Below are positions 2,124 to 57,014 of a stretch of DNA of 64,000 nucleotides, piece by piece; position 1 is the first letter of the stretch; the number at the start of each line of letters is the position of its first letter. Below the pieces are notes generated by a model. That model did not search any database. It saw only the letters and a list, made by a program, of their open reading frames with translations, and was not told where the DNA came from. This DNA comes from Candidatus Gottesmanbacteria bacterium RIFCSPHIGHO2_02_FULL_39_11 (GTDB lineage Bacteria > Patescibacteriota > Microgenomatia > 2-02-FULL-39-11), in contig MFJL01000019.1 of assembly GCA_001779195.1 (NCBI GenBank), positions 27,192 through 91,191 on the forward strand, written 5' to 3'. A program made the position numbers and the translations under genes.

Positions 2124-3428
2124 ATGGAGCAACATCCGGTACCCAGAAATATCTCAGGATTCCAGTTTCGATTAATAGGGGATATGACCCTAAAACAGTT
2201 TGGGTATTTAGCCGGGGGAGCTCTAATCGGATATTTAATATACGCGGTTTTTCCGATTCCTCCTCTTTTTAAATATCCTCTTATTGCAGTCATTGTTTTA
2301 GGAGGAGTAGCATTGGCATTTCTGCCCATTCAGGACAGACCTTTGGATAAATGGCTTATTGCTTTTATCAAAAGCATAACAAGGCCTACTCAGTTTTTAT
2401 GGCAGAAATACGAAGAAGCTCCCGAGATTTTGACACGTCCCTATACGACCGCCCAACAACCGGTACAAGAAAAGCATGTTCAACTGCATCATGAAAGCAA
2501 CCTGAAGCTTAAAGCTTATCTTGCATCCCTTCCGCCAACTACACAACAGACGTATAATATTCACGAAAAACAGTATATTGATCAAACTCTTGCTCTTTTT
2601 GGTACTCCCGTTCCGATAATCCGAGTCCCTTCTCTTAATTCTTCAACGCCTAATCATCCTCACCAGGAGGAGAGCGTGAGACTTTCACAAGCACCTGCTC
2701 AAATTTTACCCAGTCAATCGATAAGAGTTGCCCCTCCGGTAATTCATCCGCCTCATATTCCGACGGTTATTCCAAGTCCTCCTGCGCAGCCGCCTCCCTC
2801 TATCCCGGTAACCTCATCTTCCCATCAAGCAACAGCTTCTGTTTTGGGAACGGTCAATAACTCAACCGATCCCAACACTGATGACAAGCTAAAACAGCTT
2901 CTTTCTGAAAAGGAAAATCTCGCACGGGAGCTTGAGATGCTTAAAAAGAAGATGGAGACCGAAAAAACAACCGTGGTTGTAAAGCCCCAATTTGCTCCGG
3001 ACATTGGGAATGAATCCACCGTCACAAAAGTTAAGGCTGAATCTGTTACTGATACCGTTGGAATACCGAGTCTTCCTCAAACTCCTAATATGGTTGTAGG
3101 TGTGGTTAAAGATCCAGGGAGGAAAATCCTGCCAAACATTATTATTACCATAAAAGATGCATTGGGTACCCCTGTCCGGGCACTTAAAACAAATAAGCTG
3201 GGTCAGTTTGCAATAGCCACTCCTCTTCAAAACGGAAATTACGTATTAGAATTTGAAGATCCCATGAAACGGTACATCTTTGAAAATGTACAAATTATTC
3301 TTAACGACACGCTTTTTATTCCGGTTGAGGTTTTAGCAAAAGGCCAAAGAGAAATTGTGCGTGAACAGCTTAATAAAGCAATATTTGGAGAATTAAATCC
3401 GGCACCTGCCCAAAACGGACTGATTTGA
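2124..3428 (+). CDS. PrgI-like (VirB3-like) T4SS membrane protein with a long C-terminal extension
   Basis: The N-terminal ~95 aa has the PrgI-family layout (FQFRLIGDMTLKQFGYLAGGALIGYL plus two TM helices). A Pro-rich linker, a coiled coil (KLKQLLSEKENLARELEMLKKKMETEK) and a C-terminal beta-sandwich-like domain follow. It lies directly upstream of VirB4. Confidence 0.55.
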   Translation: MEQHPVPRNISGFQFRLIGDMTLKQFGYLAGGALIGYLIYAVFPIPPLFKYPLIAVIVLGGVALAFLPIQDRPLDKWLIAFIKSITRPTQFLWQKYEEAPEILTRPYTTAQQPVQEKHVQLHHESNLKLKAYLASLPPTTQQTYNIHEKQYIDQTLALFGTPVPIIRVPSLNSSTPNHPHQEESVRLSQAPAQILPSQSIRVAPPVIHPPHIPTVIPSPPAQPPPSIPVTSSSHQATASVLGTVNNSTDPNTDDKLKQLLSEKENLARELEMLKKKMETEKTTVVVKPQFAPDIGNESTVTKVKAESVTDTVGIPSLPQTPNMVVGVVKDPGRKILPNIIITIKDALGTPVRALKTNKLGQFAIATPLQNGNYVLEFEDPMKRYIFENVQIILNDTLFIPVEVLAKGQREIVREQLNKAIFGELNPAPAQNGLI

Positions 3429-3458
3429 TTCTCATGTGAATGATTGAAAAGTAAATTG

Positions 3459-3491
3459 TCACTTTTAACTTTTACCTTTTAACTTTAAACT
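3459..3491. repeat. Heptamer array (TTTTAAC/TTTTACC) upstream of the VirB4 N-terminal ORF
   Basis: cacttttaacttttaccttttaactttaaact. Confidence 0.4.
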
Positions 3492-3496
3492 AAAGT

Positions 3497-4186
3497 ATGG
3501 CATCACCTATCGGAACACCTATTCGCGCATCTACTCAGGATTTTTTGGATATTCAAACTATTTTAGATGATATTATTGTGCTTCGAGACGGATCTTGTGC
3601 AATAGCAATTGAGACAACTGCCGTAAATTTCGGTCTTCTTTCTGAAGAAGAACAGGACGCTCTAATTTATGCATATGCGGCTTTTTTAAATTCTCTCTCT
3701 TTTCCTCTTCAGATTGTCATCCTTTCAAAACGCATGGATATTTCTCTTTATATTGAGAGAATTACACGGGAAGAAGAGCGGCAGGTCGATGAAACAGTAA
3801 GACAGCGGCTCAAAAGATATAAAGAATTTATTATGTCCATTGTCAAAGAAAATAGAGTTCTTGAGAAAAAATTTTATCTGGTTATTTCGTTTTCAGCAGT
3901 TGAACTGGGAGTAAAAGGCGCTTTTCAAACAAATAGTCAAAAGAAAAAATTTCAGTTTTCCATGGATTACGTTTTATCGCGTGCAAAAACATCCCTCCTT
4001 CCCAAACGGGATCATGTACTAAGACAAATCGGAAGAATAGGACTTAAGGGAAGGCAACTTACCACACAGGAATTGGTTGAAATATTCTATAATATTTATA
4101 ACCCTACGTTAACCGGAGAAAAATTGGGAGATGTCGCAGGGTACGAAACTGCAATGGTTACTGGACAAGGAAAAAAATCATCATGA
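3497..4186 (+). CDS. VirB4/TraE-family T4SS ATPase, N-terminal domain (separate ORF; likely frameshifted from the next ORF)
   Basis: FLDIQTILDDIIVLRDGSCAIAIETTAVNFGLLSEEEQDALIYAYAAFLNSLSFPLQIV matches the conserved VirB4 N-terminal region. It overlaps the next ORF by 4 nt, ending in GQGKKSS just after an A7 run. Confidence 0.6.
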   Translation: MASPIGTPIRASTQDFLDIQTILDDIIVLRDGSCAIAIETTAVNFGLLSEEEQDALIYAYAAFLNSLSFPLQIVILSKRMDISLYIERITREEERQVDETVRQRLKRYKEFIMSIVKENRVLEKKFYLVISFSAVELGVKGAFQTNSQKKKFQFSMDYVLSRAKTSLLPKRDHVLRQIGRIGLKGRQLTTQELVEIFYNIYNPTLTGEKLGDVAGYETAMVTGQGKKSS

Positions 4187-6099
4187 ATTTCTCTTTTACA
4201 CCTAAAAAACAAAAACAATCAATTACCCCGGGAGAAGTTTCTAAAGTTGCAATCTCACCTAAAAATCCCGTCCCTGTGCCTGCCGGTGGTACGTCTAAAC
4301 TTGGTAGGGCAGGGGCTATTTCTCCGCAACTGAGAACTGAGGTAAATCATTATGTAAAGGGAACGGTAAATGTAAGAGATATTATCGCTCCCTCTTATGT
4401 AGAGGTAGACTTTGACAATATACGGGTTAACAATACGTATTATCGGACTCTTTTTGTCTCCGGATACCCGAGATATGTCTCTGCTAACTGGCTTCATCCG
4501 GTTCTTTCATTTGACCGGTCTCTTTTTATATCCATGTATATTTATCCTACAGAATCAAAAGTTATTTTAGAGGATCTTAAACGGAAAATCGCGGAGATGG
4601 AAGCAACCATTCAGGTGGATATGAAACGGGGGAAAGTAGTTGATCCCTCAGTCCAAGTAGCACTCGATGATGCTCTGAGCCTTCAGGCACAGCTTGCCAA
4701 AGGCGCTGAAAGATTTTACCAGTTCGGCCTATACGTCACCATTCCCTCCGAGGCAATTGATGATCTTAACCGAATGAGTAAGGAGGTTGAAGCAACTTTA
4801 GGTTCCCTCCTTATTATTCCTAAACACGCAACTCTTTCTCAGGAGGAAGGATTTAAATCAACTCTTCCTATGGGACTGGATAAGCTGGATGTAACCCGCA
4901 ATATGGACACTACGTCTCTTGCTACAACTTTTCCCTTTACCACAGCTTCACTTACTCAAAATGAAGGGATTTTGTATGGAATAAATGAACATGACGGGTC
5001 CCTGGTAATCTTTGACCGGTTTAGCCTCGAGAATTCAAACTCGGTTGTATTTGGAAAATCAGGAGGAGGAAAAAGCTTTCTGGTAAAACTTGAAACTATG
5101 AGACATCTTATGTTTGGAACAGAGGTTTTTGTCATTGATCCGGAAGGGGAATACACAGAGCTTACCAAAGTTATAGGAGGAGAGCTCATCAACTTCTCTT
5201 TTAATTCTCCCATTAAAATAAACCCTTTTGATTTATCCGGAGTTTATATAGAAGGAGAGAATGAGTTAGGACTTAAAATCCTTTCTCTGCATGCTCTGAT
5301 GCGGGTTATTATGGGAGATATTACTCCGGGAGAAGATGCGATTTTGGATCGGGCCCTAGTATTAACCTACAAACAAAAGGGGATTACTCCGGATCCGGGA
5401 ACTCAAAAAAACGAACCTCCTCTTATTGAGGATTTATATAAAGTTCTTATGGGAATGGAAGAAGATCACGCCAAATCCCTTGCTGAAAGGCTTGAAAAAT
5501 TTGTGAGGGGAAGTTTGGCTGGAATTTTTAATCAAAAATCAAATTTGGATCTGAAAAATCCTCTTACGGTTTTTAATGTTAAGGAGTTGGAAGCTGAGCT
5601 TCGACCGATTGCCATGTTTATAATTCTGGATCATATCTGGACAAAAATAAAAAAAACGATTAAAAAACGAATCATGGTTGTGGATGAGGCATGGTACCTG
5701 ATGAAACATCCTGATTCCGCAACTTTTCTTTATGGAATTGCTAAACGCGCCCGCAAGTACTACCTGGGGGTCACAACCATTACTCAGGATGTCGAAGATT
5801 TTCTATCAACAGATTACGGAAAAGCCATCATCACCAACTCATCTCTTCAAATTTTATTAAAACAGTCGCCGGCTGCAATTGAAAAACTCGCCCAGGTTTT
5901 TTACCTATCAGGAGGAGAAAAGCATTTTCTTCTTTCTGCAAATGTGGGAGAGGGACTTTTTTTTGCCGGCTCATCCCATGCCGCAATTCAAATTATTGCC
6001 TCTCCTGAAGAGTATCATTTGGCAACCTCAAAGCCTCAGGACATGGAAGATAAACCTCTTCCCATTTCCCATACCCCCGGACCCTCTCCTGCAGTATAA
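4183..6099 (+). CDS. VirB4/TraE/PrgJ-family T4SS ATPase (ATPase domain)
   Basis: Walker A is FGKSGGGKSF, Walker B is IMVVDEAWYLM, and the VirB4 C-terminal motifs are present. Confidence 0.85.
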   Translation: MNFSFTPKKQKQSITPGEVSKVAISPKNPVPVPAGGTSKLGRAGAISPQLRTEVNHYVKGTVNVRDIIAPSYVEVDFDNIRVNNTYYRTLFVSGYPRYVSANWLHPVLSFDRSLFISMYIYPTESKVILEDLKRKIAEMEATIQVDMKRGKVVDPSVQVALDDALSLQAQLAKGAERFYQFGLYVTIPSEAIDDLNRMSKEVEATLGSLLIIPKHATLSQEEGFKSTLPMGLDKLDVTRNMDTTSLATTFPFTTASLTQNEGILYGINEHDGSLVIFDRFSLENSNSVVFGKSGGGKSFLVKLETMRHLMFGTEVFVIDPEGEYTELTKVIGGELINFSFNSPIKINPFDLSGVYIEGENELGLKILSLHALMRVIMGDITPGEDAILDRALVLTYKQKGITPDPGTQKNEPPLIEDLYKVLMGMEEDHAKSLAERLEKFVRGSLAGIFNQKSNLDLKNPLTVFNVKELEAELRPIAMFIILDHIWTKIKKTIKKRIMVVDEAWYLMKHPDSATFLYGIAKRARKYYLGVTTITQDVEDFLSTDYGKAIITNSSLQILLKQSPAAIEKLAQVFYLSGGEKHFLLSANVGEGLFFAGSSHAAIQIIASPEEYHLATSKPQDMEDKPLPISHTPGPSPAV

Positions 6100-6108
6100 T
6101 AAAAGGGT

Positions 6109-7674
6109 ATGAGCGCTGCCCACGGAAAACAACCTACAGAGTTAACACCGGAACAAGAAGAAGAACAAAAACAAAAAGAGCGTTTTGCTCCTGATCGAAT
6201 GGAACAGGACACAGAGTCTGTTTTCTCCCAATTTTTCACTTTCGCAGCAGCAATGGGCTGGGGAAAAATAAAAGGGGATAGAGAACAATTTGAATTATTT
6301 CAAGCCATTTCTAATACTCATCTAAGCGAAGTGATTCTTGATCTTTCAAACCCACAAAATATAAAGGACGCAAGAGCTCTCTATGCAACTGTTAAAAAAG
6401 AATTTGATAGACAAAATTTTGATCCTAAAACAAAAACATATAAAAAAGCCACTGCGTCCAGAGGTTCTCTTTGGGGAAAAGCAACCATCTCAACTGACAC
6501 CCTTACAAAAGCTGACCAGCAAATAACAGTGGGGGAACACTTTCACTCTCTGGTAAATTCTCATGAAACAAACACCCGTATTGACCAAGCAGTCTCTATA
6601 TATGGAATTAAAAATAGAGAAGAATTTGTATCCTCTTTAGCCAAACATCTGAAGGAAAATAGCGGTAATTTTGATGATGCCATTCATACTGTTGTAAGAC
6701 ATCAGACTGCTCTTGAGAAAACAGGAAAAAAGGATGGAAACTTAAATAAAGAACAAGATAATGCATTAAACTCCTCTTACGAAAAATTTTCCAAACAGGA
6801 ATTAAAAGATGAGGCACGACAAAAAGCGGTTGAATATGGTGAATCCATTAAACCTGAGGCTGAAGAGGTGATGGTTAAAATCAAAGCAGGCTTGGATCCA
6901 GATCAGCTTCAAACAGAACTGAATGCAATCGGAAAACCGGTTCAAGAACCCGAGCCTCCTCCGTCTCCTATACAACCACCTGCTTCTGGTTCTATCTCTC
7001 TGGAGGCTCTTGGTTCCGGACAAAACGCACCGCATCCGGAAATGGACGAGTTATATGGAGAAATGATGGGGGAGAGTCCTACGGTTGTTGTTCCCGCGGG
7101 AAGTCCTTCTCTTAAGGGAGCAGTAAATGCCATTAATAATCCTCAAACTCCGATTCCACATATGTCTTCTGTATCATCTCCAGTAGGATCAGTATCGGTT
7201 AAAGGATTAAAAGGTCTTTTGGGGAAAGCCGCCGGTCTTTTTTCAAAACTTAAATCATTAGCTTCAACTCTTTCAAATGCTACGCTAGCTATTCCCGGGG
7301 TAGGAGAAATAGTAAAAGGACTTCAAATTGCAAAAAAAGTTCTGGATCGTATTCCTATTATTGGACAAGCGGTTAATAATGCGATTAATAATGCTTTTAG
7401 CACTCTTCTTAAAGTGTTTGGATTGTCACTTGCAGCAATTTTTCTTTTTCTTCTGATTTTTATAACCAGTTTCAGCGATCCCTCTACTTTGTTCTCACCC
7501 ACACCATCTAATTTAGGTGCATCAAACCCTTCAAATCTTTCCTGGAGTACATTTGAAAAAGATTATTTACAGCTTGCAGAGAAAAAAGAAGAAAAAGATA
7601 TTTCCTGGATCGAATTTCAAAAACAGTTTCTTAGCTCCTCAAAAATCTATCTTTCAGAGACTTCTTCCCGCTAG
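6109..7674 (+). CDS. Hypothetical protein with an acidic N-terminus, a Pro-rich region and a C-terminal TM anchor (T4SS-associated by position)
   Basis: The long ORF is translationally adjacent to virB4. A PEPPPSPIQPP stretch and a single C-terminal helix (LSLAAIFLFLLIFITSF) are present, and no recognisable family was found. Confidence 0.4.
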   Translation: MSAAHGKQPTELTPEQEEEQKQKERFAPDRMEQDTESVFSQFFTFAAAMGWGKIKGDREQFELFQAISNTHLSEVILDLSNPQNIKDARALYATVKKEFDRQNFDPKTKTYKKATASRGSLWGKATISTDTLTKADQQITVGEHFHSLVNSHETNTRIDQAVSIYGIKNREEFVSSLAKHLKENSGNFDDAIHTVVRHQTALEKTGKKDGNLNKEQDNALNSSYEKFSKQELKDEARQKAVEYGESIKPEAEEVMVKIKAGLDPDQLQTELNAIGKPVQEPEPPPSPIQPPASGSISLEALGSGQNAPHPEMDELYGEMMGESPTVVVPAGSPSLKGAVNAINNPQTPIPHMSSVSSPVGSVSVKGLKGLLGKAAGLFSKLKSLASTLSNATLAIPGVGEIVKGLQIAKKVLDRIPIIGQAVNNAINNAFSTLLKVFGLSLAAIFLFLLIFITSFSDPSTLFSPTPSNLGASNPSNLSWSTFEKDYLQLAEKKEEKDISWIEFQKQFLSSSKIYLSETSSR

Positions 7675-7731
7675 CTACTATTTATTTTCAATTCATTGGA
7701 TTTGAGTTCGTATGTCCATTACAATCCAAAA

Positions 7732-7835: not shown

Positions 7836-8945
7836 TTATCCTTGTACCCGTACCGGCATAATAATATGAAGAAATGTTGAAGCTGACTCACTTGACTTAA
7901 AGAGCCCCGGACTTAAGTTTCCGGATATTTCAAAAACTACATCTCCCTGTGGAAAATTATTAAGAAGATCAAGTAGAAACCGGTAATTAAAAGCAATTTC
8001 TGTCTCTTCTCCCTGAACATTTGCCTCCAAAACTTCCTCATCACCTCCAACCTGAGGAGTATTAGCAGAAAGAGTAATAGTATTTTTCCCAACTACTACT
8101 TTAACTACATTAGCAGACCCCCGGGCAAAAAGAGATGTGGTCTTAACTGCCTGAAGAAAATCATCTTTTTTTAATATCACTTTTGTTTTAAACCCTTGAG
8201 GAATAATTTTTTCAATAGTCGGAAATTCTCCATCTATAAGACGTGAGTAAATCCTCACTTGAGGAAGAGAAAAAACCACCTGATTTTTATCCTTTAATAT
8301 CGTAAATCCCACCTCATTAACTTTCATTTCCGTTGCAATCCGGCTTACTTCAGTTAAAGTAACCGCAGGAATTATACCTATAAAATCCTCGGAAAATTTA
8401 GGAATTGTGATTTTTTCAATAGAAAGCCGATATCCATCTGTTGAGGTTAAAGAAAAGGTGTCTCCTGTCGCAACAATGCGAACACCGGTTAATATAGGAC
8501 GGGCCTCATCTGTTGATGCGGCAAAAACCATCCGGGGAATAGCGGTCTTAATAACAGAGTAGGGGAGTCTTCGATCAAAAACTGTAACCTCGGGAAAGGG
8601 AGGGAAATCTTCAGGATTAGATGTTGCAAATGTGGCTTTTGTTTTCCCGCTTATAATTTTTAATTGTGTTGCCTCCTGAATAAACTCAAGTTTTTCCCCA
8701 TGAACACTTCCCACAAACTCACTAAGAATTTTTCCGGGTACTGTAATTTCTCCTTTTTCTTCAACTTTAACCGGAAGGGTAAAAACAATTCCAAGTTCCA
8801 GATCTGTTCCTGATAAAATAAGTTCTTTATCTGTTGCTTTTATAAGGATATTGGAGAGAATGGGAAGTTGAGCTCTTGTAGGAATACTTCTTCCGACAAT
8901 CCCCAGTGCTTTTAAAAATGATTCTTTCAAAACTACAAAATGCAT
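7836..8945 (-). CDS. dnaN: DNA polymerase III beta subunit (sliding clamp)
   Basis: At 369 aa it has the N-terminus MHFVVLKESFLKALGIVGRSIPTRAQLPILSNILIK typical of DnaN, and it sits directly downstream of dnaA. Confidence 0.93.
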   Translation of the reverse strand: MHFVVLKESFLKALGIVGRSIPTRAQLPILSNILIKATDKELILSGTDLELGIVFTLPVKVEEKGEITVPGKILSEFVGSVHGEKLEFIQEATQLKIISGKTKATFATSNPEDFPPFPEVTVFDRRLPYSVIKTAIPRMVFAASTDEARPILTGVRIVATGDTFSLTSTDGYRLSIEKITIPKFSEDFIGIIPAVTLTEVSRIATEMKVNEVGFTILKDKNQVVFSLPQVRIYSRLIDGEFPTIEKIIPQGFKTKVILKKDDFLQAVKTTSLFARGSANVVKVVVGKNTITLSANTPQVGGDEEVLEANVQGEETEIAFNYRFLLDLLNNFPQGDVVFEISGNLSPGLFKSSESASTFLHIIMPVRVQG

Positions 8946-9121
8946 AAGTTTTAAATAGTAGTAGTATTAGTAAGTATTGGTGATAAGTGTAAAAGTTTTA
9001 GCTTCTACAGTCAAGGAAAGGATAAATTGTGTATTTTTTATGTGCATAACCGCCTATATGTTTTGTGTATAAAAATGTGGATAAAAAAAATTTATTGTGG
9101 ATAAGTTGATAAATCAATTTT
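8946..9121. promoter_or_regulatory. Candidate oriC segment in the dnaA-dnaN intergenic region with DnaA boxes
   Basis: Two perfect TGTGGATAA (= TTATCCACA) boxes lie at 9076-9084 and 9096-9104, with AT-rich flanks and degenerate boxes (ttgataaat, ggataaatt). Confidence 0.6.
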
Positions 9122-10474
9122 TTATCCTACAAGCTTGCTTTTTATCCCCAAGATATCCTCTTGAATTTTTTGATCACTTTCAAGAAGTTTTCCGATTTTG
9201 CGGACTCCATGTAAAATGGTCGTGTGATCCCGTCCACCAAGAAGGGAACCTATATCCATAAGAGGAATTCTTGCTTCCTGTTTTAATAGATAGTAGATAA
9301 TCTGTCTGGGAAGGGCTATAGAACGGTCCCGTTTACTGCTTTTAATTTGAGAAAGTTTCAAATTGTAGTAAGAAAGGACGCAGTTTATAACATTTTGAGG
9401 AGATGTTTTTTGAGCCTCTTTCTGATCTTTTAAATCTGTTTTTAATAGTTTGGAAACAAGATCAATGGTTATAGGGGTATTATTAGTAAGTGCCTCTGCT
9501 GACAGGCGTGTAAGAACTCCCTCAAGTTTTCGAATATTGTCAACATTTGCGGCAATTAACTTGGCAACATCCATAGGAAGAATCATGGACCGTCTTTTCG
9601 CTTTAATAAGAAGTATGGCGGTTTTTAGCTCAAAATCAGGAGGAGCAATATCAATTATTAACCCTCCTTCAAAACGGGATCGCAGACGTGCTTCTAATTT
9701 TTCAATTTCCTCAGGAGGACGATCGGAAGTGAGGATAATTTGTCCTTTACCTTGTTGTACTGTATTAAATGTATGAAAGAATTCTTCCTGTACCGAGTTT
9801 TTCCCTGCGATAAATTGAATGTCATCTATAAAAAGAACATCTGCCCGACGGTATTTTTTTCTAAAATGAGGAGTTGTTTTTCCGCCAATTGCTTCAATAA
9901 TTTCGTTGGTAAACTGTTCCCCGGTACAATACATAATTTTTTTATGCTGTGAATTTGCAAATATCTGATGTCCGATTGCCTGCATAAGATGTGTTTTCCC
10001 AACACCTACTCCTCCGTATAAAAACAGGGGATTGTAGGAAGTTCCGGGGTTTTTAGCAACAGCGGTTGCTGCTGCGTATGCCATTTGATTAGATGAAGAA
10101 ACTGCAAACGTTTCAAACGTATACTCGGGATTAAACGGCAATTGCTCAGTAGGATAAGAGGAGGGGGCGTCATTAAAAGTGAGGAGAGGAAGGTCGTTTG
10201 GATTTTTTTTAATAACGGATGAAGGAGACGGTTCCATAGGAATAAAGGAAACAGAAACGGTTTCTTTTGTATACTCTTTAAGGCGAGTTGCAATTACTGT
10301 TGTATATTTTTTTTCTATGATAGATATCAAAATAGGTTTGTCGCATCCGATAATTGCCTTTTGGTGATCAAAAGAAAGAAGTTTGGTACTGGAAAAAAGA
10401 GTATGAAAAGAAGCCCGGGTTGAGGTGGTTTTTAAGTCCGCTAAAATAGTCTTCCATAAGATATCAACATCCAT
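9122..10474 (-). CDS. dnaA: Chromosomal replication initiator DnaA
   Basis: Walker A is GGVGVGKTHLMQAIG, with DDIQFIAGK, ILTSDRPPEEI and the C-terminal DNA-binding helix RQIIYYLLKQE. The ORF track starts at 10519, but the DnaA-like N-terminus MDVDILWKTIL begins at 10474 and a DnaA box sits just upstream. Confidence 0.93.
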   Translation of the reverse strand: MDVDILWKTILADLKTTSTRASFHTLFSSTKLLSFDHQKAIIGCDKPILISIIEKKYTTVIATRLKEYTKETVSVSFIPMEPSPSSVIKKNPNDLPLLTFNDAPSSYPTEQLPFNPEYTFETFAVSSSNQMAYAAATAVAKNPGTSYNPLFLYGGVGVGKTHLMQAIGHQIFANSQHKKIMYCTGEQFTNEIIEAIGGKTTPHFRKKYRRADVLFIDDIQFIAGKNSVQEEFFHTFNTVQQGKGQIILTSDRPPEEIEKLEARLRSRFEGGLIIDIAPPDFELKTAILLIKAKRRSMILPMDVAKLIAANVDNIRKLEGVLTRLSAEALTNNTPITIDLVSKLLKTDLKDQKEAQKTSPQNVINCVLSYYNLKLSQIKSSKRDRSIALPRQIIYYLLKQEARIPLMDIGSLLGGRDHTTILHGVRKIGKLLESDQKIQEDILGIKSKLVG

Positions 10475-10568
10475 AAGTGAGTTATCCACAATCCTAAAAT
10501 GACCGGACGTCAGCGTCAAGGGAGAGTTACTGGTACTAACTATATGAATATGGTAAAATCCATTTATT
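10475..10568. promoter_or_regulatory. Divergent dnaA/rpmH promoter region with a DnaA box
   Basis: TTATCCACA lies at 10483-10491, immediately upstream of the proposed dnaA start. Confidence 0.55.
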
Positions 10569-38116: not shown

Positions 38117-39748
38117 ATGGCAGATCATGAACCAAAAGAAGGAAAAGGACTGAAAGGGCTTCTAAAAAAGATTTTACAGGGAGGTGTTCCTCCCGAGGCT
38201 CTCTATACAGAACCTCCTCCCCCGCAGGAGGCTCGTTCCAATTCTTCCCGTCATAATAACAATAATGAGAACGAAGCACCTCGCGATGTAGATCAGTTGT
38301 GGGACATGATGGCTAGTGCTCCTGCTAAAGCACGCGAATTTATTCCGGATGTGCCCTCTAAAAAAGCTCTTGAGATTCCTGAGATGAAAAGACTGGCTAT
38401 TGACCTTATCGTAAACGTTGACTCTGATTTATATTCAAATCCCCAGTGGCTTAAAAACCGGAAATCAGATATTGAAAGAATTCAAAGCGGGTATGCCTCT
38501 ACTCTGGATCTGAAAGATCAAGGCATATTAGTTGAGATGAAGAACGCAATTATCCAGAAAGAGAGAAAAATTAAAAATATAGACGAAAGATTAAAAGAAA
38601 ACAAAGACGAGATAGAAGCGGTTAAAAAGGGAGAGCCCAAAAATACAGCCGAAGAACTGAAAAAAACAATTAGAGAAGTTACCGATCTTGATGAGATAAA
38701 AAATGATGTAAAAATTAGAGATATAGTTTCTGAATTGGAAGAATATGTCAATAAAGATGACGATGGTCGACACGAGGATGATAAAAAGGTCGGGGGAGAA
38801 CATCCCCCCAAGGGCATTTATCTGGAGTATGCGTATCGAAAGCTTCAGGATCAAATAAAAGAAGAGTATAAGAAATTAAATCAGGAAAAACCGGAAATAT
38901 ATAAGCCTCAACGCCAGGAATTAGCAAAAAAAGTAGAAGCAGTTGAACGGCTTCAAAAAAAGATGGCAAAACACTGGGGAAGCATGACCGGCAAACTGGA
39001 TAATGAAAATTATCGGGAGGTAGGTGACTATGAGATGCATAAAGATACTCTAAGGCGCGATCAAAACTACCGCGACTACTATTTTTATAAAACACTTAAG
39101 CCTATTTTATTTAATGATCGCCTGGAAGCACATAGAGATTTAACCAGTCTCTCACTTATTCAGAGGATGGAGGATTTTATGGAAATTATAAGCGAGGCAA
39201 AAGATACAGGTGAAAATCCGAATGAGAACTACGGTAGGAGCTTGGTAGCTCACTATACCCGTCTGAAAAATATGATTTTTCAGTCTAACGATACGGATTA
39301 TTATGCCGCGCATCCGGCACAGGGAATTGATGAGTTTATCCAGTCCACCGCATTTTTTACAAACGGACTCATCGATTTTGCTTTTCAAAACCCGATGGTA
39401 GTTTTAGCAAAGCGCATGTATGAGTCTGTTCTTCTTGAGATCCGGGAAAACCACCAGGGATATATTCCCAGAAGATATTTGGAATGGAATGAAAGCAGTA
39501 GAGATATCCCGATTGATCGGATGGTAAGAGAGCGTATTCTCCAGGCAATTAAAAACGGACAGGTATACAACCATCCTATTGATCCTGCAACCGGACAGGA
39601 CCAGGTTGATATATATCAAAGGCTTAGGTCCAGTAAGGGAGGAGTATTAGGCGAAAAAGAAAAACTTAAGATGGATGATTTAACCGGCGGACTTGCCCCG
39701 GGAAGTCCGGGATGGAGACGGGACTTAGGAGACCTCCAAATTGCCTAA
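38117..39748 (+). CDS. Hypothetical coiled-coil-rich protein (higher GC)
   Basis: The 543-aa ORF has no TM helix or Walker motifs. It is K/E-rich and is co-oriented and adjacent to the next large gene. Confidence 0.4.
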   Translation: MADHEPKEGKGLKGLLKKILQGGVPPEALYTEPPPPQEARSNSSRHNNNNENEAPRDVDQLWDMMASAPAKAREFIPDVPSKKALEIPEMKRLAIDLIVNVDSDLYSNPQWLKNRKSDIERIQSGYASTLDLKDQGILVEMKNAIIQKERKIKNIDERLKENKDEIEAVKKGEPKNTAEELKKTIREVTDLDEIKNDVKIRDIVSELEEYVNKDDDGRHEDDKKVGGEHPPKGIYLEYAYRKLQDQIKEEYKKLNQEKPEIYKPQRQELAKKVEAVERLQKKMAKHWGSMTGKLDNENYREVGDYEMHKDTLRRDQNYRDYYFYKTLKPILFNDRLEAHRDLTSLSLIQRMEDFMEIISEAKDTGENPNENYGRSLVAHYTRLKNMIFQSNDTDYYAAHPAQGIDEFIQSTAFFTNGLIDFAFQNPMVVLAKRMYESVLLEIRENHQGYIPRRYLEWNESSRDIPIDRMVRERILQAIKNGQVYNHPIDPATGQDQVDIYQRLRSSKGGVLGEKEKLKMDDLTGGLAPGSPGWRRDLGDLQIA

Positions 39749-39778
39749 GCTCTAAAGCAGGCAAAAGCTCTGGGACTT

Positions 39779-42031
39779 GTGGATATGCGGTTTTTGGAAA
39801 TTCTGGCAAAATCCCGGGGAAGCGGATCCAACATGAAGATAAAGAATAATAACGACCTGCACTCGTTCAATATGACGGGGCTTGCTAGTGTCCCCTATGA
39901 AGCAGTCGTGCAGTATCTGGAACCGGTTATTTATAAATACAGCCGGTTTAAGATGGGAGACCGGAAATTTCACGCGTTTTTCAACTTTATGATTCAGGAG
40001 AAGCAGAGCTTTGGGTATAAGCAAATCAGAGAGATTATACAAATGCATGAGGCGGGAGACCAAAAAGGGCTGGAAAAAAAGTATGGAAAAGAGATTGCTA
40101 CCCGGCTTATTTCCCAGGACAACCCATTTCTTTTTTCAAGCATGTGGGGAACGATGACGGGATGGAGAGCTTCCATGTCCACAACCGGTTGGGATGACTG
40201 GAGAAAGGAAAGAATGTCAACGGCCAACCGTCTTACCGGGGTGGGCGATAGGTATATTCTACAGGCAGGATCAGAACATGGAGGAGGAGAACACGGAGGA
40301 CATTTTGATTTTGATGAGGATGAAAAAGATTTACATGCCCACGGATCAACGAGAAATAAGAGAGGGTATGCCTATGAAAAAGTAAAAGAATATTTTCTGT
40401 ATGAATTTGGAGGTATGAGGGATTTTGTCCAGAACAAAAAAATCGATTTAAAAAATGAAATGAAAAGTTCGGGAGATGTCAGGCTTTCTGAGATTGCAAA
40501 AAATCCTGTTGAATTTGAAAAATATTGGAGACAAATTGGAATAAAAAGACATGAAAGTGAGATTAAGGAAAAATCAAAAGAGGAAAGAAGAAAAAATTTT
40601 CATGGAAATGAAATCGAACTTATTATGCAGACAGAGCGGGCATATAAGGCTCGCGTCTGGGCACAGGCTGTCATGAGGTCTCCTCTTATTGTGGCCCGTG
40701 AGTGGGGAAAAGAGAATACGTTAGAATCCAAGGAATTCGAATACCTGGGACAGGGAGCTCTCCGGAGAAAAATTCTAAGAGAAATTCTTCATTTTGATCT
40801 TCCGGAAATGGGACCTACCCAGGAACCTACCAAACAGCAGGAAGAGCAGTTGAACCGTATTACCGTACTTGAAGGACAGCTTGCCAGTATTTCTGAAAAA
40901 TCCAGACGGGAGAACCGGGATCTTCAGGATGAGGATTTTGAGGATATTGTAGATCCCGACCAGCGGGTACTTGCTCTAAGGTATTGGCATAAAGTGCAAA
41001 AGGCAGTTCTGGGAGCTGAGGGAAACCATGCCGGACAAGCCTGGTATGACGCGCTTGGAATACAGAGTGCGGATTTACCGGATGACAATGAATTAAGAAC
41101 GTATATATTAAATCCGGAGAACGGATTTTTAAAACCGGACGGAAAAGTTGATTTATCCGATGAACGTCTGGAAGGGCTTAGGTCTCACAAAATTGATTTT
41201 AACAAAATATCCCAGAATATTAATATTCATGCAGACGGGAAAGATTATGCAGATATTTTCCATGGAGGACATCTGCCTCCCGGAGTAAATCATGATGCAA
41301 TGCTTACCGGGCGCATGATTGACAAAGACTGGAGATATTTTTTCTCTACAGAGGATATGGGATGGGAATATTTAAATATGGTTGCATTAGGAGAAAGAAA
41401 TCCGGTCCGGCGTGCCGGAGATCTGGCCTCTCATGTGCAATTTTCACAAGGACTGGATAAGCTTATTGCCCCGGCAGGAGGTGCCATAGGACCCCGCTTA
41501 AATGAAGAAGAATTTCATAAGGCACTTACAGAAATGTTTACCGCAATTGAGGGAGATGATAGAGATGTCGCCTATGATACCGTTCAGAGGATTTTCTATA
41601 ACTCCATGCTTATGTACCGGAAGATGACTCCGAGCTATTATAAAATACCTCTTATCGGGTGGGGAGCTGCAAAAATAAAAGGTTTTCTGCGGCCCATGTC
41701 TGTGATGCAGATACTGTCAGAGCCATATGGGCAGATGCACGCGGACGCGTTTGGAGCTCAGGACATACTAAAACAAATTCACATGGGAGAGGCAGCAGGG
41801 TATATTCTTCCATCTGATATAAATCCCTTAACCGGAGAAAGGGATCATTGGACAGAATGGAATGCCCATACTCTTGAGTCTCGCTTAGGCGCAGGTAAAG
41901 AGTCTCTTACGTATGATGTTGAAAATTATGTTCTGTTTCTGATGTTTATGCTTCTTCTTTGGCAATCTCTGAAGCAATCAAACGCGGATAACGCGGAAGG
42001 TGGTGGAGGTGGAGGCCCCCCTGGTCACTAG
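39779..42031 (+). CDS. Hypothetical 750-aa protein with a C-terminal TM helix and a poly-Gly tail (higher GC)
   Basis: It has a His/Gly cluster HGGGEHGGHFDFDEDEKDLHAHG, a C-terminus YVLFLMFMLLLWQSL...AEGGGGGGPPGH, and no family assignment. Confidence 0.4.
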   Translation: MDMRFLEILAKSRGSGSNMKIKNNNDLHSFNMTGLASVPYEAVVQYLEPVIYKYSRFKMGDRKFHAFFNFMIQEKQSFGYKQIREIIQMHEAGDQKGLEKKYGKEIATRLISQDNPFLFSSMWGTMTGWRASMSTTGWDDWRKERMSTANRLTGVGDRYILQAGSEHGGGEHGGHFDFDEDEKDLHAHGSTRNKRGYAYEKVKEYFLYEFGGMRDFVQNKKIDLKNEMKSSGDVRLSEIAKNPVEFEKYWRQIGIKRHESEIKEKSKEERRKNFHGNEIELIMQTERAYKARVWAQAVMRSPLIVAREWGKENTLESKEFEYLGQGALRRKILREILHFDLPEMGPTQEPTKQQEEQLNRITVLEGQLASISEKSRRENRDLQDEDFEDIVDPDQRVLALRYWHKVQKAVLGAEGNHAGQAWYDALGIQSADLPDDNELRTYILNPENGFLKPDGKVDLSDERLEGLRSHKIDFNKISQNINIHADGKDYADIFHGGHLPPGVNHDAMLTGRMIDKDWRYFFSTEDMGWEYLNMVALGERNPVRRAGDLASHVQFSQGLDKLIAPAGGAIGPRLNEEEFHKALTEMFTAIEGDDRDVAYDTVQRIFYNSMLMYRKMTPSYYKIPLIGWGAAKIKGFLRPMSVMQILSEPYGQMHADAFGAQDILKQIHMGEAAGYILPSDINPLTGERDHWTEWNAHTLESRLGAGKESLTYDVENYVLFLMFMLLLWQSLKQSNADNAEGGGGGGPPGH

Positions 42032-42033
42032 GT

Positions 42034-43467
42034 TTAATGCTTCTGTTCTCCTCCTCCAAAAAATTTCTTCAAAGGTCCATGCTGGGTAGCCTGCTGGAAA
42101 TAATACTGAGTCTGCAAAGCTGACATTCCGGTTTGAACCGTCCCGGTAACCGGAGCAAATATGGTTCCCAGAGAGAAAGGTAAGGTTGGCTGAGGGTTGA
42201 AAGCTTTCTTAGCAGCGGCAACCAGATTGGGTGCTAAAAAGACTACACCGATTGCTAAAATATTATGGAAAATTCCCCCGGCTCCGACTCCCACAAAAGG
42301 AGGGGCCCAGGTGCTGACAGACGCTTGATTCTCTGAGCCTAGGAATGCTGCAAAGATCAATATTCCGGCCGTTGCCGGAAACACGACTAAATTGGCTAAA
42401 ATATTTTGTATCCATCCTCCAAACGCGGATTTACCGGGTATCGCCTCCTGAAGAAGAATAAACGGACCGAGGATAACGGAAATTAGTAGCTGGATATAGG
42501 AGTTTAGCAGAAGAAAGAAAAGTCTGACTAATGTAAAAAGAAACCCCCCAAAAATAAAAAGAAGTATGACTCCTCCTCCAGTGGCAATAACAGGTAGTGT
42601 TGCGACATGTGTAACTATTGCCGCAATTATTCCTACAACTCCCGCGCCGGTTGTAAGCTCTATTACTCCCAGATTATTGACAACTCCGGCCCAAAATACT
42701 CCGTTAATAAGTCCTCCCAGATCAGCATTCAGGTAAGCAGATTGAAGATTGGTTACGTCTGCTCCTCCGATTCTTCCCCCTGCTCCTGTGACCAGTAAGT
42801 TTATGAGAATTGCCATTGAAAAATACATAATATCAATCAAAAATCCGGCAATTGCATAGGAGAAGGTGATAAGAAGAAGGGCAACAACTATTTTAGGAAG
42901 CGCTGCCTGAATGGTGATTACCGTTTTAGGATCTATTTTCATCCTAAAAATAATCATAAATCCGATGATAAGCATGACGATAATAATAATGGAATACGCG
43001 ATATTGCGGGTCACTTTCCAGAAGGGAAGAAAAGTGGAAAGTGCTGAAAATCCTATCCCTTGAGCATATGCAGGCTTTACAAACCCGGCGTTATTTAGGG
43101 TATCGTGAACATAAGCAATTCCTGAGGCCGCGGGATTTGAGTAAACTTCCCCAATTAAGTTTGTGACATTTCCAAGAGCAGTTAATTTAGATTCACAGTT
43201 AGTTATATCTGTGCATCCGATTTTGTTTGTTAAATTATAAATTAAGGCATCGATTGTAAAACTTCCTGCCGAAAGGCCGCTTATACACGGCTTACCATTA
43301 TTATCGGCGGCACAGGCTTCTTCTTTTTGTTTCATATCATTTAGGCTGTTAACGTTCTGTTTATAGAAAACATCCTGAGGGTTTGCTGCGTTTACAGTTG
43401 AAGTGAATGAGACAAAGAGAGTAAAAAAGATAAATACAATAAAAAATAGGGGCAGTAGACGTTGCAT
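42034..43467 (-). CDS. Polytopic membrane protein, VirB6/TrbL-like (putative T4SS inner-membrane channel component)
   Basis: A signal peptide is followed by a Cys-containing extracytoplasmic domain and then at least 6 Gly/Ala-rich TM helices. It is immediately followed by the pilin-like gene array. Confidence 0.45.
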   Translation of the reverse strand: MQRLLPLFFIVFIFFTLFVSFTSTVNAANPQDVFYKQNVNSLNDMKQKEEACAADNNGKPCISGLSAGSFTIDALIYNLTNKIGCTDITNCESKLTALGNVTNLIGEVYSNPAASGIAYVHDTLNNAGFVKPAYAQGIGFSALSTFLPFWKVTRNIAYSIIIIVMLIIGFMIIFRMKIDPKTVITIQAALPKIVVALLLITFSYAIAGFLIDIMYFSMAILINLLVTGAGGRIGGADVTNLQSAYLNADLGGLINGVFWAGVVNNLGVIELTTGAGVVGIIAAIVTHVATLPVIATGGGVILLFIFGGFLFTLVRLFFLLLNSYIQLLISVILGPFILLQEAIPGKSAFGGWIQNILANLVVFPATAGILIFAAFLGSENQASVSTWAPPFVGVGAGGIFHNILAIGVVFLAPNLVAAAKKAFNPQPTLPFSLGTIFAPVTGTVQTGMSALQTQYYFQQATQHGPLKKFFGGGEQKH

Positions 43468-43522: not shown

Positions 43523-43939
43523 TTAAGTTTGGACAGCCGAGGGAATGTTAAAGTTGAAAATGTTCGGAACTCCCAGGAAGTTAGCAACTAAATTGAATAT
43601 TGCGTAAGCTGCAAAGACCAACAGAAGTCCCAAAAGTGCAGCCTGGATTTTATTCCGTGCCGACTCAATATTTCCTTTGTCTCCTCCTGAGGTGATCCAC
43701 TGAAATCCTCCCCAGAGAAGATAGACAAAGGCGATAAGTCCCGCTAAAAAGAGGAATAAGGAAAGAAGGCTTCCAATAAGTTTTCCTAAATCTAGGATTC
43801 TTAGTTCCGGAGGTGGAGGGATATTAATTGATCCCGAGGGGAAGGGTGTGTTGGATTGAGCGTGAACTCCTGGGACAACAATTCCGGACGTAACTGCAAT
43901 TGTTAATGTTGTGATAGCAGAGGACAAAGTTTTCTTCAT
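43523..43939 (-). CDS. T4SS pilin-like protein (VirB2/TrbC-like), paralog 1
   Basis: A signal peptide precedes a TM helix, the motif FQWITSGGDKGNIESARNKIQAALLGL and a second TM helix. Confidence 0.5.
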   Translation of the reverse strand: MKKTLSSAITTLTIAVTSGIVVPGVHAQSNTPFPSGSINIPPPPELRILDLGKLIGSLLSLFLFLAGLIAFVYLLWGGFQWITSGGDKGNIESARNKIQAALLGLLLVFAAYAIFNLVANFLGVPNIFNFNIPSAVQT

Positions 43940-44014
43940 ATATAAACAGATTAGGAGGATTTTTTTCTCTTGTCAAGAGATAAAAAAGTACTGAGGTAAA
44001 ACTTGCCCCAGTCT

Positions 44015-44341
44015 TCACTGAGTCGGGATTCTGAAAATAGTAATGGGAACCCCTGTGAAATACTCAATCAGTTTAAATATAAGGTACGCCCCAGCCATCA
44101 GAGCAATTCCGATAATCGCGTATGTCAGCGTCGATTTTGCAGATGCTACAGCTTTGGGGTCTCCTCCGGCTGTCAGGAACTTAAACCCTCCGACTAGAAA
44201 CATCACAAATAGAGCCAAAGCTGCAAGACTTACGGCAACCACCAAAATATTTGAGAATACAATCTCAAGGCATTTAATAGTCGGGACTTCTACCTCTCCA
44301 ACCTTTAACAAACATCCCGGAACATCATTCCAATTTTTCAT
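44015..44341 (-). CDS. T4SS pilin-like protein, paralog 2
   Basis: FKFLTAGGDPKAVASAKSTLTYAIIGI lies between two TM helices. Confidence 0.5.
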   Translation of the reverse strand: MKNWNDVPGCLLKVGEVEVPTIKCLEIVFSNILVVAVSLAALALFVMFLVGGFKFLTAGGDPKAVASAKSTLTYAIIGIALMAGAYLIFKLIEYFTGVPITIFRIPTQ

Positions 44342-44347
44342 AATGGT

Positions 44348-44689
44348 TTAAAAGAGTTTAGGAAGATTCAGATTTACTCCATCTCCGCTTGTAAGTCCCA
44401 GAAATTTTAAAAGGACAAGATATATTGACCACGAAGCAACCAGAATGATAAGCCCGATGATGGACTGCAAGATCCGTTCCCTGGCCTCCATCACTTTCCC
44501 TTTATCTCCTCCTGAGGTGATCCACTCCAGTCCTCCCCGAAGAAGCTGAAACAATGTCCAGATTGCTCCTAAGAATAAAATTATTCCCACCAGAGCTGAA
44601 AAAAACTTTCCAAAAGCAGCTGCGGAGCTTGCTTGGTCACAGTTAAGCCCGATTATAGCTGTATTACAAACAGGAGTTATGTTTGGCAT
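44348..44689 (-). CDS. T4SS pilin-like protein, paralog 3
   Basis: LEWITSGGDKGKVMEARERILQSIIGL lies between two TM helices. Confidence 0.5.
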   Translation of the reverse strand: MPNITPVCNTAIIGLNCDQASSAAAFGKFFSALVGIILFLGAIWTLFQLLRGGLEWITSGGDKGKVMEARERILQSIIGLIILVASWSIYLVLLKFLGLTSGDGVNLNLPKLF

Positions 44690-44693
44690 AGCA

Positions 44694-45182
44694 TCAGATT
44701 ACTAATTTTATTATAGCTTCTCCGGGATTAAAAATATTAAGCCCGAAAATATTTCCAACCAGTCCTACAAAGATATAGGAGACAACCACAATAAGAAGCC
44801 CAATCACCGCGTGAAGCATGCGCAGGCGCGCGATTTCCAAAAGCCCTTTATCAGCTCCGGCTGAGATCCACTGAAATCCTCCTATTATAAATTGTATTAA
44901 AAACCACAATCCTGCAATGATCGTTATAAATGAGATAATTCCGCTGACAAGCTGATTTAAGGAGTTTGCAACCTGAGTATTTTGATCAGTAGTATTGTTA
45001 GAATTTAAGATTCCGCAAATAATGTTTCCAATTGGGCCCATCCCTCCTCCGCATCCTATACCTTGGGTATTTGGTCCTGCTGGAGTTTGTGCAAAAGCTT
45101 TTGGAATCCCAATCAAATGAACTAAGCCGACAAAAAAAATAATAATTAAAGCAGAAATAATAATATTTAAGTATTTACTCAT
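44694..45182 (-). CDS. T4SS pilin-like protein, paralog 4
   Basis: FQWISAGADKGLLEIARLRMLHAVIGL lies between two TM helices, with an N-terminal signal peptide. Confidence 0.5.
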   Translation of the reverse strand: MSKYLNIIISALIIIFFVGLVHLIGIPKAFAQTPAGPNTQGIGCGGGMGPIGNIICGILNSNNTTDQNTQVANSLNQLVSGIISFITIIAGLWFLIQFIIGGFQWISAGADKGLLEIARLRMLHAVIGLLIVVVSYIFVGLVGNIFGLNIFNPGEAIIKLVI

Positions 45183-45619
45183 GGTGTTGGTGTAATAGTA
45201 GGATTAAGAATTGCGGTAACATTTCCATACAGAACAAGCCCGATAATTGCAGCTACCAGAAATGATGCCACAATGATAATAAGTCCTACCAGGGACTGCC
45301 AGATACGTGTCCAGGCTGATGCAACCTTTTTGCTATCCCCGGAAGCGCTCATAAAATCAAATCCGGCTATAATAAAATTTAAAAAAGTCCACAAGCCGGC
45401 AACGATAAAAATAATCCGAAGAACCAGGTTCATCAGAATGACAACTGCGGTAAGTTGTCCCGTATCACTAATTGGGGGTGTTGAGAAAAGTCCGCCGAAT
45501 CCGGTGGGATTGATTGTCCCAATCGGATCTCCCTGAGCGTAGACAGGAGTAGAAAGCGAAAGGGAGAAAGAGAGAAGAAGCGAAAAAAAAATAATTGTTA
45601 TAGATGACAAACGATTCAT
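45179..45619 (-). CDS. T4SS pilin-like protein, paralog 5
   Basis: FDFMSASGDSKKVASAWTRIWQSLVGL, with an N-terminal signal peptide ending in the AQG cleavage context. Confidence 0.5.
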   Translation of the reverse strand: MNRLSSITIIFFSLLLSFSLSLSTPVYAQGDPIGTINPTGFGGLFSTPPISDTGQLTAVVILMNLVLRIIFIVAGLWTFLNFIIAGFDFMSASGDSKKVASAWTRIWQSLVGLIIIVASFLVAAIIGLVLYGNVTAILNPTITPTP

Positions 45620-45969
45620 CCGAATACTCCTCCAAAAGGTTTTCCTGTAAGGTTATTTATTATCTGAAGTATCCAGAGGGAGGCAAACATAATAATGAGT
45701 CCTATCACCGCATATGTCAGAATCATTTTTCTGCTCTCCGATGCATGAGGGTCTCCTCCGGCATTTGAGATCACTCCAAATCCCGCAATAACTACGATAA
45801 AAAAGCACAAAATGCCGCCGGCAAGTAAAAATAGGGGAACAAAAAAAGACACAAATCCCCCGATTGAACCAAAAGCCGGATTTTTCGCGATAGGAAAAAT
45901 TTTTCCGATATCTACTCCACCTGTAGGCATTCTAAATTTAGAATAAGGGGGAACAGGGAGGTTTGTCAA
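45616..45969 (-). CDS. T4SS pilin-like protein, paralog 6
   Basis: FGVISNAGGDPHASESRKMILTYAVIGL. The start may be at the internal Met (MPTGG). Confidence 0.45.
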   Translation of the reverse strand: MTNLPVPPYSKFRMPTGGVDIGKIFPIAKNPAFGSIGGFVSFFVPLFLLAGGILCFFIVVIAGFGVISNAGGDPHASESRKMILTYAVIGLIIMFASLWILQIINNLTGKPFGGVFG

Positions 45970-45998
45970 ATAAGAGAAAGAGCCGTATACTTCTAGGT

Positions 45999-46553: not shown

Positions 46554-46555
46554 CT

Positions 46556-46795
46556 GTGAAAAGTAACTCAGACCTTCTTTATCTTAAATTAGTGAAAAGG
46601 ATGGAGGAGATAAGTGTTGTTTCTCCTCAAGAACTGGGGCCTTTTACCTTATTTTATAAGGTTATTGCCTCGCAGTTAAAAGTTCATCCCTGGAAGAGTG
46701 CAGGAGTTGCCGCTCTTATTGCGACTCTACTTCTGTATCTGGCTCTAGGAGGAGCTTTTATCAAAATTGCCTCACTACTCCAGTACGGATTCTGA
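46556..46795 (+). CDS. Hypothetical small membrane protein (possible anti-sigma factor)
   Basis: The 79-aa ORF immediately follows the ECF sigma gene with a 2-nt gap and has one TM helix. The function is suggested only by position. Confidence 0.3.
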   Translation: MKSNSDLLYLKLVKRMEEISVVSPQELGPFTLFYKVIASQLKVHPWKSAGVAALIATLLLYLALGGAFIKIASLLQYGF

Positions 46796-56218: not shown

Positions 56219-56221
56219 CTT

Positions 56222-56926: not shown

Positions 56927-57014
56927 CAGCGTAAGAAATCCCGTCTAAATCGGGATTTCAACGCTGCTGGAACGCTGAAATTTTCAGCAGAAAATTTCTT
57001 GCGTTGCCGCCTTC

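Follow-up and report, generated by a model that had tools for sequence, protein, structure and literature searches.

A 2025 review (PMC12857230) counts the type IV secretion systems (T4SSs) of the ultra-small Patescibacteria, or candidate phyla radiation (CPR), as a recent but established addition to the T4SS superfamily. The present analysis concerns a locus assigned to this group of systems in a stretch of 64,000 nucleotides, hereafter the window (contig MFJL01000019.1 of GenBank assembly GCA_001779195.1, positions 27,192–91,191). The locus consists of four genes at window positions 2124–7674, among them genes for a PrgI/VirB3-like fusion protein and a VirB4-family ATPase.

In Southlakia epibionticum, transposon sequencing identified an unusual T4SS as essential for epibiotic growth (Wang et al. 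2023, Cell; PMC10633639). It is encoded at the start of the chromosome (SEML1_0006–0019), resembles Gram-positive conjugative systems and includes a series of essential pilins, with no recognisable coupling protein or relaxase. A survey across the Patescibacteria (Quinonero-Coronel et al. 2025, Microb Genom; PMC12102498) describes a monophyletic VirB4 clade that is related, as a sister group, to MPF-FATA. TrsD is the most abundant companion of virB4 (1664 adjacent copies), PrgI/VirB3 is reported as well as arrays of 2–11 VirB2 genes, abundant in Microgenomatia, and relaxases are nearly absent. In Paceibacteria and Microgenomatia, the neighbourhood of virB4 is enriched in dnaA, dnaN and rnpA, an association for which gene dosage was proposed as the explanation. 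The survey also reports that VirB6 homologs are scarce in Microgenomatia, and that only 22.6% of this class's VirB3 hits lie near virB4.

The locus described here is very probably the cytoplasmic-membrane and ATPase half of a chromosomal, non-conjugative Patescibacteria T4SS, a type of system related to the MPF-FATA conjugation machinery of monoderms but repurposed. That it belongs to the Patescibacteria type is well supported. Such a locus has already been published (PMC10633639; PMC12102498), and the window therefore yields a correct rediscovery, with nothing new as a system.

Gene content of the locus

The initial annotation, made from the sequence without database searches, had placed four packed, co-oriented genes between clpC and dnaN. 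Exactly these were recovered as tightly packed open reading frames (ORFs), all on the + strand, and genes 2 and 3 share a 4-nucleotide overlap (ATGA).

2124–3428, + strand: gene 1, PrgI/VirB3-like fusion, 434 amino acids (Pfam PrgI)
3497–4186, + strand: gene 2, TrsD-like, 229 amino acids (TrsD/TraD and VirB4 N-terminal models, PF26593)
4183–6099, + strand: gene 3, VirB4-family ATPase with middle and C-terminal ATPase domains, 638 amino acids (CD1110, P-loop_TraG)
6109–7674, + strand: gene 4, membrane protein of a narrow, fast-evolving family, 521 amino acids

The strongest assignment came from gene 3, which matched the VirB4-like NCBIfam model conju_CD1110 at 400 bits (E = 1.6e-119; cutoff 325 bits) over profile positions 172–730 of 752, as well as Pfam P-loop_TraG (6.8e-30). 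The closest solved structure was the C-terminal domain of Thermoanaerobacter VirB4 (4ag5, 1.6e-44). Walker A (GKSGGGKS, residue 291) and Walker B (IMVVDE, residue 497) motifs are both intact. Matches of this P-loop to VirD4-type models were non-significant and below both cutoffs (T4SS-DNA_transf, 0.033; conju_CD1115, 0.055). No family-level similarity of gene 3 to CedB or CedD was found, the scores lying far under the cutoffs (CedB: 2.1e-11, 43 bits, cutoff 700; CedD: 1.7e-5, 24 bits, cutoff 600). Relatives of this VirB4 numbered 412 among GTDB species representatives; the best 80 of the 412 all belong to Microgenomates (Gottesman-, Roizman-, Shapiro-, Woese-, Beckwith- and Woykebacteria) and are 62–86% identical.

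Gene 2 matched the NCBIfam TrsD/TraD model (4.3e-8), the N-terminal region of VirB4_plasma (1.7e-9) and positions 2–124 of the CD1110 profile, and it carries the precomputed Pfam annotation PF26593 (TraC-like) in the source collection. Its product corresponds to the VirB4 N-terminal domain, encoded as a separate protein. A search returned 1911 homologs, of which the best 120 are all 219–240 amino acids long and 64–86% identical. One protein, from Candidatus Gottesmanbacteria (RIFCSPHIGHO2_02_FULL series), is 100% identical, which places the window in the Microgenomates of the CPR/Patescibacteria.

Genes 2 and 3 had been read in the initial annotation as a split VirB4. The two VirB4-type ORFs stood up in the profile searches, but they do not represent a disrupted gene. 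As judged from the uniform homolog lengths and from the adjacency of the TrsD-like gene to VirB4 in 74 of 75 evaluable loci (see below), TrsD and VirB4 form a stable, conserved two-gene arrangement. Homolog lengths and synteny likewise rule out a VirB4 pseudogene.

The PrgI fusion protein

Gene 1 had been proposed to encode a PrgI/VirB3-like membrane protein, and residues 5–90 matched Pfam PrgI above its cutoff (E = 7.4e-10; 39.7 bits, cutoff 27 bits). The N-terminal motif is conserved. In the AlphaFold2 model, a transmembrane hairpin at ~23–66 (predicted local distance difference test, pLDDT, ~95) is followed by helices up to ~158, a disordered Pro-rich linker at ~160–250 and a helix at 252–281. 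The C-terminal part is modelled as a CnaB/transthyretin-like β-sandwich (~324–404, pLDDT ~88). When this domain was compared with the PDB using Foldseek, the best match was the CnaB2 domain 8bdw_A (E = 4e-6; target-normalised TM-score 0.72), and the next matches were SdrD (SdrD-B), UafA and a carboxypeptidase regulatory domain. The same architecture is common to more than 2000 homologs of 376–570 amino acids.

On which side of the membrane the extension lies may be argued in two ways. The positive-inside rule and the precedent of VirB3 suggest the cytoplasm, whereas the Pro-rich linker and the adhesin-type CnaB fold of the model suggest an extracellular position at the cell surface.

Conservation of the locus across Microgenomates

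For analysis of synteny, 80 species-level loci (one genome per GTDB species) were annotated by BLASTP with the window proteins. The order PrgI, TrsD, VirB4 is fixed across these Microgenomates loci. In all 64 evaluable loci the PrgI fusion immediately precedes the TrsD-like gene, and the latter lies directly upstream of VirB4 in 74/75; dnaN or dnaA was found within 5.7 kb in 53/62. A Clp gene is found upstream in 12 of 42 evaluable loci. The sole exception to the TrsD–VirB4 pair is locus L064 (9120–12001), in which VirB4 follows straight after the PrgI fusion and the TrsD-like gene is missing. VirB4 is 62–86% identical across the 80 species and occupies the same chromosomal position, and overall the locus behaves as part of the vertically inherited core, at a fixed site near the origin.

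Of 42 loci with enough upstream sequence, 13 have an ortholog of a VirB6-like protein encoded elsewhere in the window no more than 10 kb upstream of PrgI; two of these, L035 and L064, also have the pilin array there. L035, from a complete chromosome of 615 kb, is an undivided locus: six pilins, a 582-amino-acid protein, the VirB6-like protein, a convergent 608-amino-acid protein, the PrgI fusion, the TrsD-like protein, VirB4, an 899-amino-acid membrane protein with Peptidase_M23, a 346-amino-acid protein and dnaN. Since the second block stands directly upstream of PrgI in these 13 loci and is undivided in L035, the two blocks of the window are one system that became separated in the Gottesmanbacteria lineage.

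The second block: pilins and a VirB6 candidate

The initial annotation had also pointed to pilin-like and membrane-channel genes 35 kb away, at 42–46 kb. Both were borne out, by a search with PF18895 and by a polytopic protein of 477 amino acids.

42034–43467, − strand: VirB6-like polytopic membrane protein, candidate translocation channel, 477 amino acids (signal peptide, multi-helix membrane domain)
43523–45969, − strand: six VirB2-like pilin paralogs (T4SS_pilin, PF18895), at 43523–43939, 44015–44341, 44348–44689, 44694–45182, 45179–45619 and 45616–45969
38117–42031, + strand: large, highly charged protein, encoded convergently to the VirB6-like protein; candidate accessory component or substrate by conserved position only; TAA at 39746–39748

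Three of the pilins matched PF18895 above the cutoff (5e-8, 1.7e-6 and 4.9e-7) and two below it (1.5e-4 and 2.7e-4), and the sixth gene carries the PF18895 annotation in the source collection. Pairwise identity among the paralogs is 24–42%. At 45963–46795, beside the array and divergent from it, an ECF (extracytoplasmic function) sigma factor is encoded, followed by a small ORF whose product has a transmembrane segment at its C terminus and is possibly an anti-sigma factor; the two may regulate the pilin array.

The 477-amino-acid protein and eight orthologs gave nothing significant against Pfam (TrbL at 0.16 in one of the nine members), nor did a profile of the family match PDB sequences significantly. 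An AlphaFold model was built from 50 homologs (mean pLDDT 77) and compared with the PDB using Foldseek. The top five matches were all TrwI/VirB6 of the R388 T4SS and the sixth was DotA of the Legionella Dot/Icm system. Scores were modest (probability 0.92–0.99, E ~0.04–0.07, TM-score at most 0.43), identity to TrwI/VirB6 and DotA is 11–15%, and the 477-amino-acid protein differs from them in an extra N-terminal secreted region of ~130 residues. By its predicted fold and genomic context, the protein is a candidate VirB6 for Microgenomatia.

The large gene at 38117–42031 is present in the window as two ORFs of 555 and 750 amino acids, which form a single 1304-amino-acid gene in other assemblies of the same organism. 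The window has TAA at 39746–39748, whereas two independent assemblies (L086 and L087) have TCA, a C-to-A difference; over 20,967 bases aligned with L086, no other position differs. Either an error of assembly or variation within the population could account for the stop codon. No Pfam match was found for the 1304-amino-acid protein, and sequence similarity was detectable only to L061 (3e-32) and L058. A minus-strand gene of 590–1273 amino acids follows the VirB6-like gene in 13/13 of the related loci that show the latter (L033, L035, L037, L043, L045, L047, L050, L051, L055, L061, L064, L065 and L073). By this conserved position only, the charged, fast-evolving, domain-less convergent protein (590–1304 amino acids) is a candidate accessory component or substrate.

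The gene after virB4

Gene 4 had been described as a 521-amino-acid, Pro-rich protein with a C-terminal membrane anchor. The length and the transmembrane segment stood, but the anchor is not strictly C-terminal: a long N-terminal soluble part leads to a transmembrane segment at ~428–450, after which a tail of 70 residues follows, and the Pro-rich stretch is only a short patch (~276–292). No match was found in Pfam, NCBIfam or the PDB. A phmmer search of 1.84 billion proteins returned only 34 representative clusters at E ≤ 1e-3, with no known domains.

In close relatives, the position after virB4 is occupied by proteins of 466–555 amino acids with one or two transmembrane segments near the C terminus. 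Other Microgenomates have proteins of 630–1420 amino acids at this position, with a transmembrane block and, in three of six tested, a C-terminal Peptidase_M23 domain (2.9e-19, 3.7e-19 and 8.7e-10), or else a weak match of the lysozyme type. The proteins in this position usually precede a protein of ~340 amino acids with an N-terminal transmembrane segment. A profile of 12 sequences of the gene 4 type reached an M23-bearing member (E = 1.8e-6, in a small database). By position, gene 4 is the counterpart of the membrane-anchored wall hydrolase of other Microgenomates, and we infer that it may be a hydrolase-less descendant of a VirB1/PrgK-like wall hydrolase. In L064, the 300-amino-acid gene after virB4 resembles, by eye, a CHAP/NlpC-type hydrolase.

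Absence of mobilisation genes

The initial annotation had reported neither VirD4 nor a relaxase and had suggested that a VirB4 module of this kind may be a dedicated uptake, secretion or attachment system and not a conjugative element. The precomputed Pfam annotation lists no relaxase, VirD4/type IV coupling protein (T4CP) or integrase family for any called gene in a region that starts ~7.9 kb left of PrgI and extends ~6 kb past the right-hand end of the window. Housekeeping genes (galactose and mevalonate pathways, RecQ, YidC, RnpA) and toxin–antitoxin pairs surround the locus. Flanking repeats were limited to short matches at chance level, the ~48 kb around the locus hold no tRNA gene, and GC content showed no compositional shift, that of the locus matching its surroundings. 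A role other than conjugation is supported by what was found, namely vertically inherited core genes at a fixed site with no mobilisation genes nearby.

Comparison with known systems

With the described Patescibacteria T4SSs, the window shares VirB4, the adjacent TrsD-like gene, PrgI/VirB3, a pilin array (six genes here, 2–11 reported) and, in candidate form, a VirB6-type protein, as well as the lack of a relaxase or T4CP near virB4 and a chromosomal position beside dnaA, dnaN and rnpA. It differs in its two blocks 35 kb apart, in the Clp ATPase gene beside PrgI, in the ~340-residue extension of PrgI that ends in a CnaB-like domain, in a VirB6 candidate undetectable by current hidden Markov models (HMMs), and in a gene after virB4 that lacks the peptidase or lysozyme domain of its relatives and of Southlakia.

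A second comparison is with the conjugative MPF-FATA systems of monoderms (Trs of pGO1/pSK41, Prg of pCF10 and the CD1110 family of CTn2). Among the VirB4 models, the best match is to the CTn2 family CD1110; as in pGO1, VirB4 is preceded by a separate TrsD-like protein, and VirB3 is of the PrgI type; the relatives of the locus also share a large membrane-anchored wall hydrolase after virB4, like PrgK or TrsG. In contrast to MPF-FATA, no relaxase, T4CP or mobile-element boundary was found in the window plus ~7 kb per side and no oriT was found, the locus is a vertically inherited core locus, and VirB2-like pilins, which the Gram-positive systems lack, are present.

The archaeal DNA import systems Ced/Ted and ComB of Helicobacter pylori are likewise minimal and T4SS-derived, with a pilin, a VirB6-like channel, a VirB4-type ATPase and no relaxase. 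Similarity to CedB and CedD is weak (43 and 24 bits), and the likeness to these import systems is a functional analogy only.

Several details can be added to the published picture. In essentially all of the Microgenomates examined, PrgI–TrsD–VirB4 forms a module of fixed order close to the origin, and the PrgI fusion precedes TrsD–VirB4 in every evaluable locus, a result to be set beside the 22.6% of VirB3 hits given in the survey (PMC12102498). A VirB6 candidate supported by fold and context was missed by profile searches in Microgenomatia. The PrgI–CnaB fusion occurs in more than 2000 proteins, and the wall hydrolase encoded after virB4 can apparently be pared down to a membrane protein without known domains; neither the CnaB-like extension nor the loss of the hydrolase domain in this clade is mentioned in the parts of the survey drawn on here. 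The system is of biological importance, being essential for the epibiotic lifestyle in the one genetically tractable relative. Details of this kind may help to refine HMM profiles and to model the structure of the monoderm-type machine.

Position beside the replication origin

The initial annotation had set the locus right beside oriC. A scan for DnaA boxes and GC-skew analysis support this placement.

1–1862, − strand: Clp_N/AAA/ClpB_D2 ATPase, left neighbour of the locus (Pfam annotation)
7836–8945, − strand: dnaN, right neighbour
9122–10519, − strand: dnaA, right neighbour
9041–9150, no strand assigned: DnaA-box cluster in the dnaN–dnaA spacer, probable oriC (context, not a component)

The cluster contains two perfect TTATCCACA boxes and approximately four boxes with one mismatch within 110 bp, and the cumulative GC-skew minimum falls at 7–9 kb of the window; on both grounds the origin is placed ~1.4 kb from gene 4. 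Because the T4SS operon runs along the + strand and the inferred origin lies to its right, its transcription would be head-on to the replication fork. The convergent arrangement of VirB4 and dnaN was found again in most of the related loci. The Clp-type ATPase, seen in the window at 1–1862 (− strand) and in L001 at 3808–7680, is 1290 amino acids long, far exceeding the usual length of ClpC or ClpB, has a Thr/Ser/Pro-rich N-terminal region and neighbours PrgI only in the close Gottesmanbacteria clade.

That the position itself is functional, through gene dosage or through expression tied to replication initiation, and not an inherited accident of gene order, is possible but doubtful. The proximity to dnaN or dnaA in 53 of 62 loci persists despite rearrangements of orientation, the same neighbourhood is described for Paceibacteria and Microgenomatia together with the gene-dosage proposal (PMC12102498), and the Southlakia locus tags 0006–0019 lie at the chromosome start (PMC10633639). 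Against this, nine of the 62 loci have neither dnaA nor dnaN in the flank, head-on transcription would be atypical of highly expressed genes, and a dosage effect would need overlapping rounds of replication, which these slow-growing cells of small genome size are not known to have. For such cells, the gene-dosage idea is plausible but weak.

Proposed function and alternatives

Conjugation is argued against by the lack of a relaxase or T4CP and by vertical inheritance. By analogy with characterized T4SSs, PrgI/VirB3 and the TrsD-like (VirB4 N-terminal) domain would tether a VirB4 hexamer to the membrane beneath the VirB6-like channel. ATP hydrolysis by VirB4 could then power the removal of pilins from the membrane and their assembly into a filament or conduit at the cell surface, and the product of the gene after virB4 may serve as a scaffold derived from a wall-hydrolase protein. 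As the literature on Saccharibacteria suggests, the machine would mediate the obligate contact with a host bacterium by protein export or exchange of macromolecules, not conjugation.

Some points count against this reading. To our knowledge, no member of the Microgenomates has been cultivated. The hydrolase domain is absent from the gene after virB4 in the Gottesmanbacteria clade and no VirB8-like protein was identified, which leaves the wall-spanning part of the machine unexplained. T4CP homologs are reported to be common elsewhere in Patescibacteria genomes (PMC12102498), and the check made here covered the window and ~7 kb per side.

The same machine might instead act mainly as an importer, taking up host DNA, RNA or other macromolecules by means of a pilus in the manner of Ced/Ted or ComB. 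Its parts list is that of the minimal import systems (pilins, a VirB6-like protein, VirB3 and VirB4 are present, and neither a relaxase nor a T4CP lies nearby), and the similarity of VirB4 to CedB (2.1e-11) and CedD (1.7e-5), although weak, points the same way. In addition, a 2026 preprint on a cultivated relative that takes up RNA from its host reports tubular structures, which may be T4SS pili, where parasite and host meet, and these organisms lack nucleotide synthesis (PMC12857230, PMC10633639). However, at 43 bits against a cutoff of 700, VirB4 is not a member of the Ced family, and the sequence carries no sign of the direction of transport. Moreover, competence in Southlakia proceeds by type IV pili and ComEC, and deletion of comEC spares viability, whereas the T4SS is essential (PMC12857230). 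We consider a mainly importing machine unlikely; export or contact appears more likely than pure import, one reason being this contrast between dispensable ComEC competence and an essential T4SS.

A further version would make the Microgenomates machine a distinct variant. Here, PrgI would carry a wall-spanning element (Pro-rich linker, coiled coil and CnaB-like domain) that replaces VirB8/VirB10 parts, the channel would be a VirB6 family invisible to current profiles, the wall-hydrolase domain would have been dispensed with in this Gottesmanbacteria clade, and the whole might be a pilus-based importer of host nucleic acids and not an exporter. This combination is considered improbable.

A decaying remnant of an integrated conjugative element (VirB4 broken, hydrolase lost, mobilisation genes deleted and the rest scattered) might be read from the two VirB4 ORFs, the missing M23 domain, the nonsense codon in the 1304-amino-acid gene and the 35 kb between the blocks, but it is largely refuted and very improbable, given the same two-ORF arrangement in 74/75 loci with TrsD-like proteins 64–86% identical, a VirB4 with intact Walker motifs that is 62–86% identical class-wide at a fixed site, the lack of an annotated integrase domain, of tRNA genes within ~48 kb, of long flanking repeats and of a GC content distinct from the surroundings, and the absence of the nonsense codon from two other assemblies of the same organism.

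Other sequence features of the window

Two tRNA-Ser genes (56132–56219 and 56840–56927) flank a nucleotidyltransferase/HepT toxin–antitoxin pair, and ARAGORN assigns the second an unusual anticodon, ACT. They are different genes, and an integration duplicate was ruled out for this pair at 56 kb.

Tandem repeats of the heptamer AGGTWAA, in both orientations, were found in intergenic sequence upstream of the PrgI gene (1946–2033), in the PrgI–TrsD spacer (3462–3491) and upstream of a mevalonate-pathway gene (51622–51649), with 11 matches against 1.3 expected by chance. The heptamer was ruled out as a conserved operator; the only relative that keeps it is L020, where it lies just upstream of PrgI.

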